A stretch of 43,041 bases of DNA from Anaerolineae bacterium (GCA_015493675.1 WGCR01000550.1:1-43041), one strand, 5' to 3'. Shown: positions 35,159 through 43,041, numbered from the stretch's first letter. Made by a program: numbers and translations. Notes: a model not told the origin generated them from the sequence alone.

Positions 35159-35551
35159 GTGGAAAAGCGTAAGCAAATCAGATCAGCGAAGGATTTAGTT
35201 GTTTATCAGAAAGCGTATCAACTTGCGATGCTGATCTATGAAGTCACCAAATCTTTTCCTCCGGAAGAACGATATGCCCTGACCAGTCAGATACGCCGAT
35301 CCTCTCGGTCTGTCTGCCTCAATCTGCGTGAGGCCTGGGCCAAGCGACGTTACCAGGCCCATTTCATCAGCAAACTCACCGACTGCGACGGCGAAAACAG
35401 TGAGACAGCTTCATCATTGGATTTTGCTCACGATTGAGGTTATATTTCTGGTAGCCAACACGCTCATCTTGTTGCGCTCAATGAAGAAGTTGGCAAGATG
35501 CCAGGCTCCATGCTTCGCAACCCTTTCCCTTTTCTCATCCCCAAACGCTAA
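35159..35551 (+). pseudogene. Four-helix-bundle protein (23S rRNA intervening-sequence protein / Avd-like family) interrupted by an in-frame TGA
   Basis: LVVYQKAYQLAMLIYEVTKSFPPEERYALTSQIRRSSRSVCLNLREAWAKR is typical of this family. TGA at 35435-35437 is in frame. The same frame continues GYISGSQHAHLVALNEEVGKMPGSMLRNP to TAA at 35549-35551, which is the expected last helix. Confidence 0.75.
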
Positions 35552-36767: not shown

Positions 36768-38000
36768 ATGCGCATTCTGCTTCTGAGCCAATGGTATCCT
36801 CCGGAACCGGCGCACACTCCGGAAGAATTCATCACCACACTGCACGCACTGGGTTACGATGTCGAAGTGCTGACCGGATTTCCCAACTATCCTACGGGAG
36901 AGCTGGCTCCGGGCTACAAGTTGCGCCCCTGGATGAAAGAAACACTGGATGAGATTCCGGTGGGACGTGCTTTTCTCTACCCTGATCACAGCCGATCCGG
37001 CCTGAAGCGCGCCTTGAACTACATTTCCTTTGCGATTAGCAGTGCGCTCTTTGGCAAATGGCTGGTTGAAAAACCTGACGTCATTTTTGTTTATCATCCC
37101 CCCTTGACCATCGGATTTCCCGGCATCCTTCTGAGCAAACTGTGGGGGGCGCCCTTTGTGTATCAGGTGCAGGATATGTGGCCCGAAACCTTACGGGCGA
37201 CCGGGATGCTGCACAATGAAAAAATTCTTGATTGGATTGATCGATTTGCAAAAAAAATCTACAAAAGAGCCCATGCGGTTTGCGTGATCTCTCCCGGGTT
37301 CAAAAGAAACCTTATTCAAAAAGGCGTCCCGGAAGAAAAAATCCACGTCATTTCCAACTGGGTGGATACAGATGTGTATTATCCGGCGCAGCCTGACCCC
37401 GACCTGGCAGAAAAACTCGGGCTGGCCGGAAGATTCAACATTATGTATGGCGGCAACATCGGCGCCGCCCAGGCTCTGGATGTGGTGCTGGAAGCTGCTG
37501 ACAGCCTGCGCGAACATCCCGAAATCCAGTTTGTTTTGGTCGGCAATGGCGTTACATTGCCCACCTTGCAACGTCAGGCAGAGGAGAAAGGATTATCCAA
37601 CGTCAAATTCCTGGGGCGTTATCCAGCGTCAGAAATGGCCCGTCTCTACGCCCTGGCCGATGTCCTGCTGGTGCACCTGAAAGATGATCCGCTTTTCGAG
37701 ATCACCATTCCCCACAAGATATTCGCCTATCTCGCCAGCGCCAAGCCAGTGCTGGCTGCGGTGCGGGGAGATGCAGCGGATGTGATTGAGGAAATCGGCG
37801 CCGGGATTGTTTGTCCGCCTCAGGATGCCTCCGCTCTGGTTGATGCCGCCCTGGCTCTTTACAAAATGCCCGCGGAAAAACGTGAAGAAATGGGCGAACG
37901 CGGCCTGACGGCCGTTCAAGAGCGATTCAACAAACAAAAACAGGTCGCAGAACTGGCGGCAGTGCTGGAACAAACCGTACAAGCGTATGCAGCATCATAA
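36768..38000 (+). CDS. wbuB: Glycosyltransferase family 4, WbuB-like (candidate L-FucNAc transferase)
   Basis: The N-terminus is MRILLLSQWYPPEP...GYDVEVLTGFPNYPTGEL. It lies directly downstream of fnlABC, as in known L-FucNAc clusters. Specificity is inferred from context. Confidence 0.7.
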   Translation: MRILLLSQWYPPEPAHTPEEFITTLHALGYDVEVLTGFPNYPTGELAPGYKLRPWMKETLDEIPVGRAFLYPDHSRSGLKRALNYISFAISSALFGKWLVEKPDVIFVYHPPLTIGFPGILLSKLWGAPFVYQVQDMWPETLRATGMLHNEKILDWIDRFAKKIYKRAHAVCVISPGFKRNLIQKGVPEEKIHVISNWVDTDVYYPAQPDPDLAEKLGLAGRFNIMYGGNIGAAQALDVVLEAADSLREHPEIQFVLVGNGVTLPTLQRQAEEKGLSNVKFLGRYPASEMARLYALADVLLVHLKDDPLFEITIPHKIFAYLASAKPVLAAVRGDAADVIEEIGAGIVCPPQDASALVDAALALYKMPAEKREEMGERGLTAVQERFNKQKQVAELAAVLEQTVQAYAAS

Positions 38001-38637
38001 TCAGATCGCAATCAAGTACATCCTGGACAGGGTATTCGCCCTGTTTCTGATCCTCATTCTTTCGCCGTTGTGGCTGGCGATTATGCTCGCCATCAAACTG
38101 GATGATGGCGGGCCAGTGTTTTTCACCCAGGATCGGTTGGGCAAAGATGGCTCGATCTTCAAAATCTACAAATTCCGCACGATGATCGTCAACGCCGATC
38201 AATTTCTGGATGAACAGGGCCGGGTAACGAAGAAAAATCGCATTACACGCGTTGGCAAATTCTTGAGGGCGCTCAGCCTTGACGAGCTGCCACAATTGAT
38301 CAACATTTTCAAGGGAGAAATGTCAGTGATCGGGCCGCGCCCGGTGTTGCCCACCCACTACCCCCGATACACCGACTATCAAAAACAACGCCTGCTGATG
38401 AAACCGGGCGTAACCGGACTGGCCCAGATCAATGGCAGAAACACGCTTAAGTGGTCCCAGCGCATCGAGTATGATGTGTGGTACATCGAACATTACTCCC
38501 TGTGGCTGGACATGAAGATACTGCTGAAAACCATCAAAGTTGTCCTGCTACGAGAAGGCATCGTCATGGATCGGAACCCCCACGAAGTCGATGATCTGGC
38601 CCAACCTCCAAACGACGAAACCAACAGAGTCTCATGA
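37987..38637 (+). CDS. Small monotopic phosphoglycosyl transferase (PglC/WbcO-type initiating sugar transferase)
   Basis: A single N-terminal hydrophobic helix is followed by PVFFTQDRLGKDGSIFKIYKFRTM...DELPQLINIFKGEMSVIGPRP. Confidence 0.88.
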   Translation: MQHHNQIAIKYILDRVFALFLILILSPLWLAIMLAIKLDDGGPVFFTQDRLGKDGSIFKIYKFRTMIVNADQFLDEQGRVTKKNRITRVGKFLRALSLDELPQLINIFKGEMSVIGPRPVLPTHYPRYTDYQKQRLLMKPGVTGLAQINGRNTLKWSQRIEYDVWYIEHYSLWLDMKILLKTIKVVLLREGIVMDRNPHEVDDLAQPPNDETNRVS

Positions 38638-39620
38638 TCAAACGCATCGAACCGGAAGTTACAGATAAATTCCGCAAAGACCCCGATCAGGAAAACTTTC
38701 TGGCCCGGCTGAATCATATTCTCGCGCCACATCAAGAGGAAGACTATATCGATAATCTGCCCGAACGCTTCCCCACCGTGCACGTCATCGGCGCACCGCG
38801 TTCTGGCACAACATTGCTCACCCAGGTGCTGGCTGCACATACCAACATCGGCTACATCAACAATCTGATCGCCGCATTCTGGAAAGCGCCGGTATACGGC
38901 ATTCGACTCTCCGCCCAGGTCGTTCCCCGAAACATCGGCTCTTCCTACCAATCCGAATTCGGCAGAACAAAGGGCATCCAGGAACCTCACGAGTTTGGCT
39001 ATTTCTGGTCGGAATTGTTGGATTATCAGGAAATGCGCGAGCCGGAAGAAGAAAAAAACATCGATTGGGAGCGCGTACGGTTGATTTTTACGAATATGAC
39101 CCGGGCGTACGGTGGCCCAATCCTTTTCAAATCTTTGCTTTTGGCCTGGCACATTCCTCAAATGCAGATGATATTACCCAAGACGCGTTGGCTCCATATT
39201 CGCAGAGATCCAATTCAAAATAGTCTTTCTTTGTTGAGATTTCGTCACCAATTCCTGGGTTCTGTTGAAAAATGGGGGTCGCTTAAGCCGAAAGAATATG
39301 AGTGGTTGGCAAACAAACCTTATTGGGAGCAGGTGGCCGGGCAGGTCTATTTTCTTGAAAAACGCTATCGGGAGCAATTGAAACAGATACCAAAAGAAAA
39401 CATCTTATCCCTGACCTATGAAGAACTCTGCAATTCACCCGGTGAAGCCATCAAAAATGCATTACGGATGATAAACCGTCAGGGAGCTTCTGTGTCGTTA
39501 TCCTCTTCACCTCCAGACCGTTTCAAAATTCAAAAATACGATCTTCATAACGAGCCCGATAGCGATAAAATTATGACGGCCTGGGTAAAACTTAACCAGG
39601 AATTCGGGCAATTGGATTAG
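38634..39620 (+). CDS. Sulfotransferase-family protein (second copy)
   Basis: VIGAPRSGTTLLTQ is a 5'-PSB loop. HIRRDPIQNSLS resembles a 3'-PB motif. The ATG overlaps the previous stop (ATGA). Confidence 0.75.
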   Translation: MIKRIEPEVTDKFRKDPDQENFLARLNHILAPHQEEDYIDNLPERFPTVHVIGAPRSGTTLLTQVLAAHTNIGYINNLIAAFWKAPVYGIRLSAQVVPRNIGSSYQSEFGRTKGIQEPHEFGYFWSELLDYQEMREPEEEKNIDWERVRLIFTNMTRAYGGPILFKSLLLAWHIPQMQMILPKTRWLHIRRDPIQNSLSLLRFRHQFLGSVEKWGSLKPKEYEWLANKPYWEQVAGQVYFLEKRYREQLKQIPKENILSLTYEELCNSPGEAIKNALRMINRQGASVSLSSSPPDRFKIQKYDLHNEPDSDKIMTAWVKLNQEFGQLD

Positions 39621-39639
39621 ACTTTTCCAAAGTGCACCA

Positions 39640-40716
39640 ATGTCAGAATTATCAATAATTTTCGCAAGCCAAAACTGTGAATGGGAGCAAACGATAAAGA
39701 GCGCTGACAGCTACGATTTTTATCATCTTCCCGGCTATCACACATTGCACGAAAAGCAGGGGGACGGTGCGGGAACGCTGTTGGTATATGAGGAGGGTGA
39801 CAAGTTCATTGCCTTACCCTTGATGGTGCGGGAGATCAGCCAGATTCCGGGGCTGGATACCTTCACGGATTACCGGGATGCTACATCGGTTTACGGTTAT
39901 CCCGGGCCCATCACCAATGCCGCTACCCGGGGAGATCAGGCGTTCATCGCCCGGTTTCACCAGCAACTGAACCGTTACGCCCTTTCTCAGGATTGGATCA
40001 GTGTTTTCTCACGACTAAACCCGTTGCTGAAAAACCACCAACTCCTGACCCACCACGGAGAAATCATCGGCCTCAGCGACACCGTTATCATCGACCTTGG
40101 CCTGACGGAAGAAGAGCAAACCGCCCATTACCGAAAAAGTCACCGTTACGAGGTGCGGCGCGCCCGACGGGAGGGAATGGAGGTGCAACACGATGATGAG
40201 TGGGCAAACTACGAAGCATTTATTGATCTGTACCATCAGACAATGCAGCGCGTGCATGCCGCACCTCACTATTTTTTCAACCGTACTTATTTCGATGACT
40301 TACGCACAGCGCTTGGAGATCGATTGCGATTGTATGTCGCAACGATGAATGGAAACTTCTGTGCGGCGTCGCTCTTCGTCAAGACTCAAAACATCATCGA
40401 ATACCACCTCTCCGCCAGTTCAGATGATTGTTTGAAATGGGCGCCGTCGAAACTCATCATTGATGAGGTCCGGCAATGGGGAAAGGCGTCCGGTGCGCGC
40501 TGGCTACATCTTGGCGGCGGCGTTGGCTCCCAGGAAGACGCCCTTTTTCGATTCAAGGCCGGCTTTTCACCATTGCGACGCCGGTTTTTTATCTGGAAAT
40601 GGATTGTTCAACCCCAGGTTTACGAACAGCTCGTGCGTAAAAGGGAGCAATGGGTTCGCAAGCATAACGAATCCATTTCCGATTCATCTTACTTCCCCTC
40701 CTACCGCCACCCATGA
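39640..40716 (+). CDS. FemAB-family / GNAT-fold (Acetyltransf_6-like) transferase
   Basis: Size and pattern fit the FemAB-like proteins seen in EPS clusters (YHLPGY...YGYPGP...HYRKSHRYEVRRARREG...YHLSAS...LHLGGG). This recognition is less secure than the others. Confidence 0.55.
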   Translation: MSELSIIFASQNCEWEQTIKSADSYDFYHLPGYHTLHEKQGDGAGTLLVYEEGDKFIALPLMVREISQIPGLDTFTDYRDATSVYGYPGPITNAATRGDQAFIARFHQQLNRYALSQDWISVFSRLNPLLKNHQLLTHHGEIIGLSDTVIIDLGLTEEEQTAHYRKSHRYEVRRARREGMEVQHDDEWANYEAFIDLYHQTMQRVHAAPHYFFNRTYFDDLRTALGDRLRLYVATMNGNFCAASLFVKTQNIIEYHLSASSDDCLKWAPSKLIIDEVRQWGKASGARWLHLGGGVGSQEDALFRFKAGFSPLRRRFFIWKWIVQPQVYEQLVRKREQWVRKHNESISDSSYFPSYRHP

Positions 40717-40886
40717 CCCCTCTCCGTCTCTACCTCTCCCCGCCCCACATGTCCGGGCGGGAAATGCAATACGTTCAGGAAGCCTTCGATTCCAACTGGA
40801 TCGCGCCCCTGGGCACGAATGTGACCGCCTTCGAGCATGACTTCTGGCTCCACAATGAGGACGATGCACTACGGCTTTCTCGATGA
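40713..40886 (+). pseudogene. 5' fragment of an EpsN-like aminotransferase gene
   Basis: ATG 40713 overlaps the upstream TGA (ATGA). It encodes MTPLRLYLSPPHMSGREMQYVQEAFDSNWIAPLGTNVTAFEHDF. It then leaves homology and stops at 40884-40886. The segment 40724-40814 matches 41673-41763 with 3 mismatches. Confidence 0.8.
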
Positions 40887-41475
40887 ATCTGGCGGCGTCG
40901 ATCCTTTTTCGGGGAGTCATGTTCTTGTCGTTGCTTTGCTCACAACGCATACGCCCCGGAAAATCGAGCGACACGTAAAAAGAGCTCATCAGAAACTTGG
41001 ACATCATGTTCGGATGACTGAACTGAAGGCATCTTCGTCGAGCCAACGAGTCGTTACCCGTTTTTTGACAGCAATTGCTACTGAAGACATTGAAATCATA
41101 GCTGTTATCGTCGATAAACGAGCTATTCAACGCCCGCCTACAGATCCTGAAAAAATCTATCGCAAAGCCGTTACCCATGTGGCTGCTCACTGCGTCTCGA
41201 AATGGCCCAGAGTTGAACTGTTTCTTGACAAACGTTATACCAAAAAATCACTCAGGCGAGAATTGGAAGTCGCTATCCGTACAGGCATTGCCCACCTGCC
41301 CCAAGAAGTCGTATTGATTCATCAGGAGGATTCACGCAACATAAAAGGCCTCCAGGCCGTTGATTTCGTGGCCTGGGCGCTTTTCCAGAAGTATGAAGCA
41401 AATGATGAACAGTATTATGCAATCATCCAGGACAAAATAATCGTCGAAGAAGTGATTCAGCAACTCCTGTGGTAG
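40864..41475 (+). CDS. DUF3800-family protein, function unknown
   Basis: MHYGFLDESGG is the N-terminal DESG signature. The C-terminal LQAVDFVAWAL resembles the family's LQxADxxA motif. In-frame ATGs at 40837 and 40855 are alternative starts. The gene is AT-richer than its neighbours. Confidence 0.65.
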   Translation: MHYGFLDESGGVDPFSGSHVLVVALLTTHTPRKIERHVKRAHQKLGHHVRMTELKASSSSQRVVTRFLTAIATEDIEIIAVIVDKRAIQRPPTDPEKIYRKAVTHVAAHCVSKWPRVELFLDKRYTKKSLRRELEVAIRTGIAHLPQEVVLIHQEDSRNIKGLQAVDFVAWALFQKYEANDEQYYAIIQDKIIVEEVIQQLLW

Positions 41476-41697
41476 CCCCCTTCCCATCCCCAGACAAAAA
41501 CAAAAGCGGCTCTCCCTGGTCCCCGATTTCAATCTGTCCCCCTGCATTTCAGCAGGAGCTAGGCGCCTTCTACGAAGACCCAGGGTTTCCAGGACTTACG
41601 ATACCGCTTTTCTGATCATAGTATACGCTCACCCACTCTATTTGTCAAGGATAATCGCATTTCCGAGAAAAGCCGCCTCTACCTCTCCCCGCCTCAC

Positions 41698-42801
41698 ATG
41701 TCCGGGCGGGAAATGCAATACGTTCAGGAAGCTTTCGATTCCAACTGGATCGCGCCCCTGGGCCCGCACGTGGACGCGTTCGAGCAGGAGTTCGCGGCCA
41801 AAGTGGGCGCAAAGCACGCGCTCGCGCTCAGCGCCGGCACCGCCGCCATCCATCTCGCCCTCATCCATCTCGGCGTAGGCCCGGGCGACGAAGTCATCGT
41901 CTCCACCCTCACCTTTGCTGCCAGCGCCAACCCCGTCGTCTACCTGGGGGCCAAACCGGTCTTCATCGACAGCGAGCGCACCTCCTGGAATATGGATCCC
42001 GACCTGCTGGCCGAAACCCTGGCCCGCAAGGCCCGCCAGGGCAAACCGCCCAGGGCCGTCATCCTCGTCCATCTCTACGGCCAAACCGCAGACATCGATC
42101 GCATCCTCGCCATCTGCAACCAATACGACGTGCCCCTCATCGAGGATGCAGCCGAAGCGCTGGGCGCGACCTACAAAGGCCGTTCGCCCGGCGTTTTTGG
42201 TCAGGCGGGCATTTTCTCCTTCAACGGCAACAAGATCATCACCACCTCCGGCGGCGGCATGTTGGTCTCCGACGACGCCGAACTCATCGCCCACGCCCGC
42301 AAACTGGCCACCCAGGCCCGGGACCCGGCACCCCACTACCAGCACTCCGAGATCGGTTACAACTACCGCCTGAGCAACGTGCTGGCGGGCATTGGTCGCG
42401 GTCAGTTGCAGGCGCTTGATGAGCGGGTGCGACGCAAGCGGGAGATATTCGAGAGCTATCGCCGGGCGTTGGCCGATCTCCCCGGCATCGATTTCATGCC
42501 CGAAGCCCCCTGGGGCCTGCACAATCGCTGGCTCACCGTCATCACCGTCGATCCCGCTCGCTTCGGAGCCGACCGCGAGGCGATCCGTCTAGCTCTGGAA
42601 GCCGAAAATATCGAATCCCGGCCTTTGTGGAAGCCCATGCACTTGCAGCCTGTCTTCGCAAAGTGTGAGAGAGTCGGCGGCAGCGTCTCGGAAGACCTGT
42701 TTGCCCGGGGACTGTGCCTCCCCTCCGGCACGGCCATGATCGCCGCGGACCAAAAGCGGGTGGTGGAAGTCCTCCGCAAAGTGGGACGAGCAGAACGCTG
42801 A
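41698..42801 (+). CDS. DegT-family PLP-dependent aminotransferase, EpsN/PglE-like
   Basis: MSGREMQYVQEAFDSNWIAPLGPHVDAFEQEF is the N-terminus, with FSFNGNKIITTSGGG further on. The conserved RLYLSPPH codons lie upstream (41674-41697). There is no in-frame start before the TAG at 41560-41562. Confidence 0.88.
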   Translation: MSGREMQYVQEAFDSNWIAPLGPHVDAFEQEFAAKVGAKHALALSAGTAAIHLALIHLGVGPGDEVIVSTLTFAASANPVVYLGAKPVFIDSERTSWNMDPDLLAETLARKARQGKPPRAVILVHLYGQTADIDRILAICNQYDVPLIEDAAEALGATYKGRSPGVFGQAGIFSFNGNKIITTSGGGMLVSDDAELIAHARKLATQARDPAPHYQHSEIGYNYRLSNVLAGIGRGQLQALDERVRRKREIFESYRRALADLPGIDFMPEAPWGLHNRWLTVITVDPARFGADREAIRLALEAENIESRPLWKPMHLQPVFAKCERVGGSVSEDLFARGLCLPSGTAMIAADQKRVVEVLRKVGRAER

Positions 42802-42835
42802 TAACGCAAACGCCCGCAGATCGAACCAGAAAAAG

Positions 42836-42864
42836 ATCAGCGTCAATCAGCGCCATCAGCATCC
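42836..42864. repeat. Three phased 9-10-mers: ATCAGCGTCA, ATCAGCGCC, ATCAGCATCC
   Basis: Read directly from the sequence, 35 nt after the last cluster gene. The style is similar to the decamers at 2829-2858. Confidence 0.85.
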
Positions 42865-43041
42865 CATTTCCCACCACCAAAAATCTGTATAATCTGTGCA
42901 CTAGGTGGTTCCCTTCGTGTAATTACTGAACACCAGGTTGAAAGGTTATACCAGTGCTTCGCGACTTTCAGGAATCCACCGATTAAAATCAGAACTGAGG
43001 GCCTCTGGCCGCCTGGTCTACCTATGCAGACAGGTCAAAAC

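Follow-up and report, generated by a model that had tools for sequence, protein, structure and literature searches.

How did the 5′ end of an aminotransferase gene in a polysaccharide locus of an Anaerolineae bacterium come to stand twice on the same strand, with a DUF3800 gene between the two copies? We approached this question in a 43,041-nt stretch of DNA (hereafter the window, GCA_015493675.1 WGCR01000550.1, to which all coordinates refer) and in related sequences, with compared loci and proteins designated by L and P numbers, respectively. The features concerned are the following.

39640-40716, plus strand: FemAB-family gene, 358 aa (Pfam FemAB, 6.6e-15; Acetyltransf_6, 1.8e-12)
40713-40886, plus strand: left aminotransferase 5′ fragment, an ORF of 57 codons (ORF call, sequence comparison)
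40724-40844, plus strand: left homology arm, the left copy of a 121-nt direct repeat (repeat search, blastn, arm identity matrix)
40864-41475, plus strand: DUF3800 gene, 203 aa, predicted RNase HII-like fold (Pfam PF12686, E=1e-10)
41503-41610, minus strand: DUF3800-III sRNA gene, Rfam RF02962 (cmscan, 110.2 bits)
41620-41648, minus strand: sRNA promoter, TTGACA-17 nt-TATACT (promoter scan, 11/12 consensus positions)
41647-41667, plus strand: aminotransferase translation-start region, with AAGGA at 41647-41651, ATT at 41659-41661 and GAG at 41665-41667 (sequence)
41673-41793, plus strand: right homology arm, the right repeat copy and start of the intact gene (repeat search, blastn, arm identity matrix)
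41698-42801, plus strand: intact DegT/EpsN-like aminotransferase, ORF listed from an internal ATG (Pfam DegT_DnrJ_EryC1, 5.9e-106)

The two repeat copies lie 949 nt apart and are identical at 110 of 121 positions (blastn), and their 56-nt core occurs exactly twice in the window, against a shuffle expectation of 0. An initial annotation of the DNA had described this duplicated aminotransferase start at the same spacing, and the description holds in at least three independent assemblies, as GCA_027039925.1, GCA_027051855.1 and ERZ23495249 carry the arrangement with 99.9-100% identity. Two short contigs from Logan, of 4.1 and 1.6 kb, align to its left part and stop inside the left repeat, and thus do not span the arrangement. 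A match at 88 of 91 nt followed by 30 diverged nucleotides had also been reported, and our count agrees, with three mismatches in the first 91 nt and eight in the following 30; with the frame moved by about 2 nt, the values are 4/91 and 8/30, a significant heterogeneity (Fisher p=0.0015). The duplication amounts to no more than the 5′ ends of the two aminotransferase copies. As first noted, the ends of the insert (40845/41672) carry no terminal inverted repeats, there is no transposase or integrase domain in the insert and its neighbours (Pfam), and TRF found no tandem repeats in 40500-42000.

On the left, the FemAB-family gene is the upstream neighbour in the window's type of cluster and has a 94% identical ortholog in the Anaerolineae MAG L006. 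Its TGA overlaps the ATG of the 5′ fragment, the coupled start that had been recognized before. Codons 1-44 of this fragment are aminotransferase-like (MTPLRLYLSPPHMSGREMQYVQEAFDSNWIAPLGTNVTAFE) and are followed by a degenerate tail, the ORF overlapping the DUF3800 start by 23 nt; over 131 nt, the fragment is 93.1% identical to the 5′ end of an intact old-type aminotransferase in L010. The 57-codon ORF should be annotated as a gene stump.

The gene between the repeats belongs to the DUF3800 family, as first proposed, with PF12686 matching residues 5-175 at 43 bits (cut-off 21). Its start at 40864, 20 nt past the end of ungapped repeat homology, is confirmed by its 180 homologs at E<=1e-5, which are mostly 203 aa long too. 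It was correctly described as AT-richer than its surroundings (GC 0.469, window average 0.537), but the aminotransferase, at 0.641, is the stronger outlier. The hallmarks of the family are an N-terminal DE motif and a C-terminal QxxD motif (PMC7736814), present here as DESG (MHYGFLDESG) and QAVD (LQAVDFVAW), and residues D7, E8, Q164 and D167 are invariant or nearly so in an alignment of 40 sequences. The predicted fold is RNase H2-like: the AlphaFold2 model (pLDDT 92.1, pTM 0.89) has RNase HII structures as its best PDB matches in Foldseek (1eke, E=1.5e-5, TM 0.55; and 2dff). PADLOC returned a weak match to DUF3800_VII (8e-5). The promoter scan detected no promoter of the gene's own, and it is presumably expressed by transcripts of the polysaccharide operon that run on through the translated left fragment.

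Whereas the initial annotation took the insert for a single gene, the roughly 200-nt ‘spacer’ behind DUF3800 is an RNA gene, holding a full-length DUF3800-III sRNA with its own conserved promoter (gathering threshold 43.8 bits, E=2.5e-28, positions 1-108 of 108). The 828-nt insert encodes only these two genes. They are convergent, with the sRNA 3′ end 28 nt from the DUF3800 stop codon, and the RNA ends in a closing stem and then a U-run, with a predicted folding energy of -45.3 kcal/mol (z=-2.4). Its promoter places the predicted transcription start near 41611. The two hexamers and their 17-nt distance are conserved across L014, L017, L020 and L023, in contrast to the sequence between them; RF02962 adjoins DUF3800 in the same geometry in these four loci and in L022, and it is the best-conserved stretch of the locus in a nine-locus alignment judged by eye. 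DUF3800-associated RNA motifs, including DUF3800-III, were described by Weinberg et al. 2017 (PMC5737381). The pair in the window is like the published one in protein family (PF12686), in RNA family (full length and high scoring) and in the position of the RNA beside the gene, but differs in that here, as in L014-L016 and L023, it is nested in a duplicated aminotransferase 5′ end within a polysaccharide operon, a setting for which we found no description in the literature searched.

The right repeat copy opens the intact aminotransferase. Its PF01041 score is 355 bits and its best NCBIfam match, TIGR04181 (LegC family), scores 390.2 bits, under the cut-off of 420, so that its family membership is certain and its exact substrate assignment is not. 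‘EpsN’ is the name that source records give to some homologs. The gene is a new-type allele, 97% identical to P0001-P0003; it differs from the L011 gene by 42 synonymous and 10 non-synonymous codons, and is clearly under purifying selection. Its start is unusual in that it lacks a canonical start codon. As previously stated, the conserved RLYLSPPH codons are retained (from 41674) and no in-frame ATG, GTG or TTG lies between the stop codon at 41614-41616 and the ATG at 41698, but the claim that translation must begin at this internal methionine went too far, since an ATT at 41659, 7 nt after AAGGA, could also serve. L023 has a GTG start (start region AAGGGTAATCGCTTTTCTGTGAAAAGCCGCCTCTAT, gene start VKSRLYLSPPHM) at the codon where the window has GAG in all three assemblies, and native N-termini of homologs, for instance MSEKRIYLSPPHM, are similar to the leader of the right copy. 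The GTG start of the composite has thus been lost, and the intact gene must initiate at ATT 41659 or ATG 41698. Because a structured RNA gene and then a T-rich run precede it on the plus strand, and given the missing canonical start, its expression is uncertain despite purifying selection.

The same composite (aminotransferase 5′ fragment, DUF3800, sRNA, complete aminotransferase) is found at about 75% identity in Caldilineae contigs and in another Chloroflexi MAG. Positions 40725-42650 of the window are colinear with L014 861-2785 (74.7% over 1936 nt, left fragment included), and the repeat spacing of 949 nt compares with 948 nt in both L014 and L023. The right junction, AAGGRTAATCGCWTTTCYGWGAAAAGC, is common to the window and L023 and is not aminotransferase-derived, while L014 and L023 have a left-junction tail in common. 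These shared spacings and junctions in lineages about 25% diverged overturn the view of a recent insertion in this genome; the initial annotation had itself held that the same arrangement in relatives, with no empty sites and no other copies of the insert, would point to an old local rearrangement, and by that criterion the composite is best read as old. The composite is also found behind different genes, FemAB in the window, a PglD-like gene in L014 and L016, and Bac_transf in L015. L014 and L015, both Caldilineae contigs, are 99.56% identical over 4096 nt from the exact edge of the left arm rightwards, three of their few mismatches falling within ~140 nt of that edge, in the arm, whereas to the left of that edge their upstream genes are unrelated. 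In all, we inspected about six contexts of the DUF3800-sRNA module.

Both arms of the window are local aminotransferase sequence. In the arm identity matrix, the left and right arms match at 87/91 positions, and the left arm matches the single-copy genes of near relatives about as closely (L010 87/91, L011 88/91), whereas only 71-74/91 positions match between the window's arms and those of Caldilineae, where the two arms of L014 agree at 85/91. Empty sites, in which the FemAB-like gene would be coupled directly to the aminotransferase, had been suggested as a check; we found none, as the near relatives carry other inserts there. These nearest relatives have no DUF3800, and instead carry a TumE-family pair, HicAB or PIN-like modules beside other aminotransferase fragments, with two successive modules and two fragments in L006. 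Their 5′ pieces end near codon 8 (L006) or codons 16-17 (L010, L011, L013), which argues that fragmentation of the aminotransferase is a general property of the locus and not tied to a DUF3800-specific site. A second duplication lies just past the window end, where ~425 nt of the aminotransferase 3′ end (382/425 identical, 90%) follow a HicBA pair; such displaced 3′ fragments keep an old-type tail beside a PglF-like gene, and in L010 the undisrupted old-type gene (P0005) is followed by PglF directly. No donor of the module was found either, and both a gain in the window's lineage and a loss in its relatives would fit these observations.

We consider it probable that the locus holds an old recombinase-free composite, which likely arose by illegitimate joining and was later reshuffled when its aminotransferase arms took part in homologous recombination. 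In this view, the first ~44-52 codons of a resident EpsN/DegT-type aminotransferase precede a two-part module, in which a promoterless DUF3800 gene converges with a DUF3800-III sRNA gene driven by a strong promoter of its own; a complete second aminotransferase copy follows, which would have brought its own Shine-Dalgarno sequence and short N-terminal leader. For its origin, we infer that DNA carrying DUF3800, sRNA and aminotransferase was joined illegitimately inside the resident gene while the other side was anchored by within-gene homology, that is, by homology-facilitated illegitimate recombination (HFIR), and that only products keeping one intact aminotransferase survived. For its spread, which the comparisons show in part, the arms would let RecA-type recombination carry the module into clusters with a similar aminotransferase or, alternatively, swap the genes around it, and would also let incoming alleles overwrite each arm. 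Such recombination and overwriting would explain why both arms look local although the lineages differ by ~25-30% in the module. Among the mechanisms that the initial annotation offered, the comparative data agree best with a cassette that travels on homology arms taken from gene ends, the composite standing behind three different upstream genes.

Vertical inheritance since an ancient local rearrangement, with gene conversion of the arms, loss by arm-to-arm deletion in near relatives and no horizontal movement, seems unlikely. Gene conversion could by itself account for arms that are more similar within genomes than between lineages, recombination between direct repeats would delete the module precisely, and the age of the composite (about 75% identity between lineages) suits such a history. 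It does not suit the L014 and L015 composites, 99.6% identical behind unrelated upstream genes, nor an aminotransferase body in the window that is 94.8% identical (nucleotides) to module-less L011 but only 73.5-74.6% to composite-bearing L014 and L023. Moreover, in the 30-nt tail the local allele that the left arm resembles is not the one that the right arm resembles, and arm-to-arm deletion should leave a clean single gene, which the near relatives do not show.

That three lineages have their junction at one position, at the same repeat spacing, would also fit a site-specific mechanism. We therefore weighed a (semi-)autonomous mobile element that inserts at a specific site around codon 50 in genes for EpsN-type aminotransferases and, in doing so, duplicates ~120-150 nt of target sequence, for example through widely staggered nicks or an RNA-templated route via the RNase H-like protein and the sRNA. 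Arms of local type in each lineage, degenerate left tails that look derived from each lineage's own aminotransferase, and the link of DUF3800 to retrons and mobile elements (PMC7736814, PMC13594972) are in line with it. The non-aminotransferase leader shared by the window and L023, however, indicates common descent of the composite rather than independent insertions, and a target-site duplication would hardly be expected to yield a right copy with Shine-Dalgarno sequence, start codon and native-type leader. Similar aminotransferase duplications, with different junctions, accompany unrelated modules (TumE pair, HicBA, PIN-like), and neither a recombinase nor a reverse transcriptase is encoded nearby. 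L017 has no aminotransferase, and a 98-nt direct repeat (93% identity) does bracket the module in that locus, but its geometry differs and it encodes two copies of a small peptide beside a C39 peptidase-like gene, so that its copies are probably a pair of paralogs; L020 and L022 have no such flanking repeat. Altogether, such an element is quite improbable.

We hold as equally improbable a one-event allele swap, in which a block of DUF3800, sRNA, new aminotransferase and HicBA entered an older aminotransferase and removed its middle, leaving 5′ and 3′ stumps. Both stumps do match one old-type allele (P0005 of L010 has ...GPNVTAFE... and the tail AMSQSDIDRVVGIIRSMR, and the 3′ fragment of the window ends AMSQSDIDRVVGIIRFMR), and the intact gene between them is new-type, as in P0001 (97% identical). 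The two halves of the block nevertheless occur independently elsewhere, HicBA-type pairs with 3′ fragments but no DUF3800 in L006 and L011-L013, and DUF3800 with a 5′ fragment in L014 and L015, where the aminotransferase leads directly to PglF with no 3′ fragment; at least two separate events are therefore needed. Finally, a mis-join of two aminotransferase strain variants, conceivable for a metagenome-assembled genome with ~91% identical, strain-variant-like repeats and raised as a possibility at the outset, is next to impossible given identical arrangements in three assemblies from different samples, the matching left side in both Logan contigs, homologous composites in three other lineages and an insert that is a coherent gene with its matching Rfam RNA.

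Integrative elements such as e14 and phage 21 in icd, and many tRNA-gene islands, carry a replacement for the end of their target gene. As in those, a displaced and slightly diverged gene-end copy flanks the insert here and the intact gene is reconstituted, but there is no integrase and no defined att core, and the insert is only 828 nt long. An integrase-mediated island was rejected, as the insert encodes no recombinase and different inserts have junctions at different codons. An insertion sequence or transposon was discarded on the lack of a transposase domain and of inverted repeats at 40845/41672 and on the 121-nt duplication, and flanking duplication is not a feature of integron gene cassettes, nor do the called genes of L001 include an integrase. 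Hotspots of defence and toxin-antitoxin (TA) genes, which lie between conserved core genes, exchange their contents by homologous recombination in the flanks, and similarly HicBA, a TumE-family pair, UPF0175/PIN-like, ParE and DUF3800-sRNA modules occupy the same position in related genomes, whereas the flanks here are partial duplicates of one gene and not two core genes.

Judged from sequence, the layout is that of an HFIR-type displacement array, an anchor with foreign modules and displaced fragments: left fragment, module and intact gene on the 5′ side, and intact gene, HicBA and old-type 3′ fragment on the other. In the arrays attributed to this process in Rhs C-terminal displacement and T6SS systems (PMC3240628 for HFIR; PMC5361080 for T6SS effector-immunity arrays), too, a conserved gene is the anchor, small modules are added beside it with no dedicated recombinase, and displaced partial copies pile up there. 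Here, in contrast, the anchor is a housekeeping-type sugar aminotransferase and not a toxin gene, fragments lie at both 5′ and 3′ ends, and the cargo consists of TA pairs and a protein-RNA module rather than toxin tips and immunity genes. By functional analogy only, the module may be compared with type III TA systems (ToxIN-like), which likewise pair a nuclease-fold protein with a dedicated and strongly expressed structured RNA in a compact, horizontally mobile two-part module in the same niche as type II TA pairs. Membership in that type, which is marked by a tandem array of antitoxin RNA repeats on the toxin gene's strand and upstream of it, was rejected, as TRF found no tandem repeats in 40500-42000 and the RNA here is single-copy, convergent, downstream and on the opposite strand.

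The locus presents no novel class of mobile element but a gene-RNA pair already on record, in a setting that the literature searched does not describe and whose mechanism would be ordinary. Since 2017, the eleven RNA motifs associated with DUF3800 have stood without a functional hypothesis, and here one of them is found in exactly the niche that sister genomes fill with HicAB, TumE-family, PIN-like and ParE modules, which suggests a selfish or defensive role. A promoterless protein gene, a conserved near-consensus RNA promoter and the TA niche together point to a testable toxin-antitoxin-like or defence function. More specifically, DUF3800 and its DUF3800-III RNA might form a recombinase-free addiction or defence module, an RNase H-like effector or toxin with a strongly expressed structured RNA, that spreads through Chloroflexi polysaccharide loci on duplicated ends of the strongly conserved aminotransferase as portable arms and competes there with type II TA pairs, a reading that we put forward as possible but doubtful. 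The locus offers a concrete case of how small selfish modules can persist and move without a recombinase of their own, bracketed by partial duplicates of a very conserved gene.

Two copies of the start of an aminotransferase gene lie 949 nt apart in the window, with a DUF3800-family gene (Pfam E = 1e-10) between them. As the initial annotation had described by eye, they form a direct repeat, which a repeat search of the window recovers as 121 nt (40724-40844 and 41673-41793, 91% identical) and which blastn aligns without gaps (110/121 identical); its 56-nt core occurs exactly twice in the window, with none expected from shuffles. The uneven divergence reported there also stands, with three mismatches in the first 91 nt and eight in the following 30, or 4/91 and 8/30 in a frame shifted by about 2 nt (Fisher P = 0.0015), as do the overlap of the left copy with the FemAB-family gene and the DUF3800 assignment. 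The right copy is part of an intact aminotransferase gene of the DegT family (Pfam 5.9e-106).

Features of the insert and its left flank
40713-40886, plus strand: 57-codon ORF whose start is the left repeat copy; its ATG overlaps the TGA of the FemAB-family gene
roughly 40864-41648 (about 790 nt): the module, made of DUF3800 (plus strand), 28 nt, and the sRNA with its promoter (minus strand)
41503-41610, minus strand: full-length DUF3800-III RNA (RF02962), Rfam 110.2 bits against a gathering score of 43.8, E = 2.5e-28
41648..41620, minus strand: near-consensus sRNA promoter TTGACA-17-TATACT, directly upstream of the sRNA

The window is contained in contig JALUMM010000009.1 of GCA_027039925.1, and a second MAG and one ENA assembly show the duplicated arrangement too, at 99.9-100% identity, which makes mis-assembly very unlikely; on the strength of these three assemblies and of the homologous composites elsewhere, an artefact was rejected. 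Two short Logan contigs match the left side only, and both stop inside the left repeat. The insert is single-copy in the window, exact matches to the DUF3800 (153-aa call) and aminotransferase proteins were found in this locus only, and the exact product of the 212-aa ORF has no database record, so that a search for other exact copies, in the window and by exact-protein look-up, yielded none outside this locus. At position 43025 a single base differs from the public contig L001, which continues past the window end (T vs C), and is irrelevant to the finding.

The insert had been read as a single gene, but the roughly 200 nt between DUF3800 and the right copy hold the DUF3800-III RNA, the sole Rfam match across the whole window, and not spacer. 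When nine loci carrying relatives of the window's DUF3800 gene are aligned, the RNA region is, by eye, conserved above the flanking coding sequence, and both promoter hexamers and their 17-nt spacing are retained while the spacer sequence varies. RF02962 also matches beside DUF3800 in the relatives' loci L014, L017, L020, L022 and L023, and L017 and L020 have no aminotransferase among their called genes. DUF3800 genes are paired with eleven unrelated RNA motifs, and the function of the pairing is not known (PMC5737381).

Because homologs are 203 aa long and begin M-x-Y-G-F-L-D-E-S-G, we place the true DUF3800 start at 40864. An RNase H-like fold has been proposed for the family (PMC10910872, PMC7736814) and is confirmed for the window's protein at the level of a predicted structure: the best PDB structure matches of its AlphaFold model (pLDDT 92) are RNase HII (1eke, E = 1.5e-5, TM 0.55), and the DE and QxxD motifs are both present and conserved. 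A PDB sequence search gave no useful match, the nearest non-identical proteins are 73-76% identical, and neither the sRNA core pattern nor the DUF3800 protein matched IMG/VR contigs, giving no viral link. A promoter scan detected no DUF3800 promoter and the gene starts directly after, or overlapping, the end of the translated stump (in L014 the stump TGA lies 1 nt ahead of the DUF3800 ATG), and it is therefore probably expressed from the operon. In L020 a 26-nt piece resembling the C-terminal DUF3800 codons (DKITVEEVV; L020:3742-3767 vs L020:4569-4594) sits within a small ORF that precedes the DUF3800 gene and may be a remnant of an earlier copy.

The intact aminotransferase has no in-frame ATG, GTG or TTG between the stop at 41614 and the ATG at 41698, in line with the earlier claim that its upstream start was lost. 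Homologs carry a short variable leader followed by an invariant R-[LI]-Y-L-S-P-P-H-M (one example is MSEKRIYLSPPHM), and the window reads ISEKSRLYLSPPHM in frame upstream of the gene. In L023, from another Chloroflexi MAG, the gene is called from the GTG of GTG-AAA-AGC-CGC; the window has GAG-AAA-AGC-CGC at the equivalent place, with GAG at 41665-41667 in all three assemblies of this strain, a comparison that points to loss of the composite's start codon here through one substitution. Initiation at the internal ATG 41698, which would drop the conserved RLYLSPPH strand, is not forced as had been claimed, as ATT 41659, 7 nt after AAGGA, is also a candidate. Codon differences from L011 (42 synonymous, 10 non-synonymous) indicate purifying selection, and the aminotransferase is presumably still expressed.

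The composite of aminotransferase 5' stump, DUF3800, sRNA and intact aminotransferase is not confined to this strain. A 73%-identical DUF3800 protein (P0125, source-named Caldilineae bacterium) lies inside the same composite in L014-L016, and window 40725-42650 is colinear with L014 861-2785 at 74.7% over 1,936 nt, the left aminotransferase fragment included. L023 also carries it, with a degenerate left copy (83% to the right copy, in-frame stop). The repeats are spaced by 949 nt in the window and 948 nt in both L014 and L023; the window and L023 have in common the sequence from the sRNA promoter to aminotransferase codon 5, which is not aminotransferase-derived, and L014 and L023 have the same left-junction tail. 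With the roughly 75% identity to L014, the shared spacing and junctions show that the composite is old and of common origin.

The gene upstream of the composite varies: FemAB in the window, PglD-like in L014 and L016, and Bac_transf in L015. From the exact left edge of the aminotransferase homology, L014 and L015 agree at 99.56% over 4,096 nt; to the left of it they are unrelated, and three of their few mismatches fall in the first ~140 nt of the arm. Homologous exchange through the arm has left its direct footprint in this breakpoint. L022 has the module amid 3' scraps of the aminotransferase beside a ParE gene, so the module also occurs in the hotspot on the 3' side of the aminotransferase. 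The DUF3800 relative there (L022:362-609) is the closest non-identical one (76%) and follows the ParE toxin gene and two 3'-end scraps, which are 81-82% identical to window 42527-42590 and 42736-42774. A 98-nt direct repeat in L017 (L017:3342-3439 and L017:4896-4993, 93% identity), which brackets the module and a further ~560 nt, was considered as a sign of element-made duplication and then set aside: its geometry differs, and its copies, located near a C39 peptidase-like gene, encode a small hydrophobic peptide (AIAVVGxQPYLGLAxALAGGVVLGFVCM) and are probably paralogous small-peptide genes.

Empty sites with FemAB coupled directly to the aminotransferase had been suggested as a comparison; the FemAB-like protein was scanned against genomes and against metagenomes, each scan gave one locus, and neither is a clean empty site. 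These loci, L006 (Anaerolineae MAG) and L009 (JGI metagenome contig), are 97% identical to each other and represent one lineage, colinear with the window at 88-92% as far as the FemAB end and without DUF3800. Their junction holds a ~25-nt vestige of the aminotransferase start and a ~390-nt non-coding insert ahead of the intact gene, and downstream stand HicBA, a 3' scrap with an internal deletion, a UPF0175/PIN-like pair and a further 3' stump. The L006 insert (L006:11100-11490) contains a long hairpin (…CGAAGACACAAAGGCACAAAGG… / …CCTTTGTGCCCTTTGTGG…) at the FemAB/aminotransferase junction and is flanked by the ~25-nt duplicate of the gene start; the final ~13 nt of a TumE-type gene (GCTAGAGGACTGA) persist just ahead of the intact gene.

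Other relatives were reached through close aminotransferase homologs, from which P0001-P0003 and P0005 were taken. P0005 is an intact old-type protein, with ...GPNVTAFE... as in the window's 5' stump and the tail AMSQSDIDRVVGIIRSMR as in the 3' stump, and in L010 PglF comes straight after its gene, which gives an empty site on the 3' side. P0001-P0003 represent the new type; they share 97% identity with the window's intact gene and have the full N-terminus MPPPRLYLSPPHM, and in L011-L013 a different HicBA-like pair and then an old-type 3' stump stand downstream of the new-type gene. Aminotransferase 5' pieces of 33-40 nt (L010:6114-6146, L011:3851-3890, L013:1-40) lie just after an upstream Bac_transf gene, and UPF0150, MJ0235-like or TumE-family small genes stand between them and the intact gene. 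Across the loci the left pieces break off at around codon 8 (L006), codon 16-17 (L010, L011, L013) and codon 44-52 (window), a recurrent property of the locus and not of one site. The L010, L011 and L013 pieces end right after an imperfect palindrome, CCCGCCCCACATGTCCGGGCGGG, in the arm (SPPHMSGR codons), which might be break-prone; considered as a possible recombination site, it was set aside, as the window and L006 junctions do not end there.

The 3' end of the aminotransferase is duplicated as well, its last ~425 nt recurring at 90% identity (382/425) beyond the window end on L001.

Duplication of the 3' end (direct)
L001:10679-11104 (= window 42318-42743): first copy
L001:12175-12598 (~770-1200 nt past the window end): second copy

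The second copy begins 5 nt past the stop codon of HicA, itself preceded by a putative HicB partner (70 aa, no Pfam match on record), and its C-terminal tail, AMSQSDIDRVVGIIRFMR, is of the old type, unlike that of the intact gene. The order is thus FemAB, aminotransferase 5' stump, DUF3800 and sRNA, intact aminotransferase, ~590 nt and HicBA, 3' stump, and PglF-like dehydratase. The ~590-nt non-coding stretch past the aminotransferase stop (window 42802-43041 on to L001:11163-11750), about 510 nt of which is missing from L006, holds a near-perfect 22-nt hairpin (AGCCGAATCCGTGATTCGGCGG / CCGCCGAATCACGGATTCGGCT). A ~100-nt piece within this stretch (L001:11368-11471, from window 43007) recurs at 78-86% in two places in L011, two in L013 and one in L012, and is probably a dispersed repeat. 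Elsewhere in the polysaccharide cluster, a local low-GC patch holds a small gene of the 23S_rRNA_IVP / bAvd four-helix-bundle family (35228-35437), 69 aa long here and 130 aa in L010.

The arms themselves resemble local genes.

Identity over the 91-nt core
Window left arm vs window right arm: 87/91
Window left arm vs L010 single-copy gene: 87/91
Window left arm vs L011 single-copy gene: 88/91
Window arms vs Caldilineae arms: 71-74/91
L014 left arm vs L014 right arm: 85/91

Over the 30-nt tail, old-type NVTAFE codons stand in the left arm and new-type HVDAFE codons, as in L011, in the right. Along its body the window's aminotransferase shares 94.8% nucleotide identity with module-free L011, compared to ~74% for module-bearing L014 and L023. 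These identities indicate that arms and gene body are local alleles and that the travelling part would be DUF3800, the sRNA and a short junction leader only, a pattern that recombination through the arms predicts and purely vertical inheritance would not. Import of a low-GC block (36.7-41.7 kb) with the left fragment was dropped: against the window mean of 0.537, the atypical part is the aminotransferase (41698-42801, 0.641), with its neighbours (36768-40716) at 0.511. Nucleotide identity of the aminotransferase is 87-95% across relatives whose flanks differ, and both patterns fit a frequently exchanged, highly conserved gene.

Insertion of DUF3800, aminotransferase and HicBA as one block is disfavoured, as the two halves occur separately. 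An IS, transposon or integrase island is rejected, with variable junctions and, as first noted, no integrase, transposase or terminal inverted repeats at the insert. The comparisons establish how the insert is built, that the composite is old and occurs in varied upstream contexts, the arm breakpoint and the local arms, and also that other small modules recur with aminotransferase stumps at both gene ends. We infer that DNA carrying DUF3800, the sRNA and an aminotransferase with its own SD and start was illegitimately joined inside a resident aminotransferase while homology anchored the other side of the joining, that is, by homology-facilitated illegitimate recombination (HFIR), the mechanism put forward for displacement arrays of the Rhs and T6SS type (PMC3240628, PMC5361080). 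Selection would have kept only products with one intact aminotransferase, and the two arms would since have let ordinary homologous recombination move the module or swap its surroundings.

The gene-RNA pair is already known as Rfam RF02962, and the locus follows the same recombination logic as HFIR displacement arrays and as hotspots exchanged via conserved flanks; judged by defining features, it is neither an IS nor an integrase island nor a type III TA system. Three aspects appear to be undescribed: a DUF3800-sRNA module nested inside duplicate ends of a conserved gene for a sugar aminotransferase, the persistence of this arrangement across Chloroflexi lineages, and the sharing of its niche with type II TA pairs. 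The finding is of value mainly as a testable clue to what DUF3800 RNAs do.
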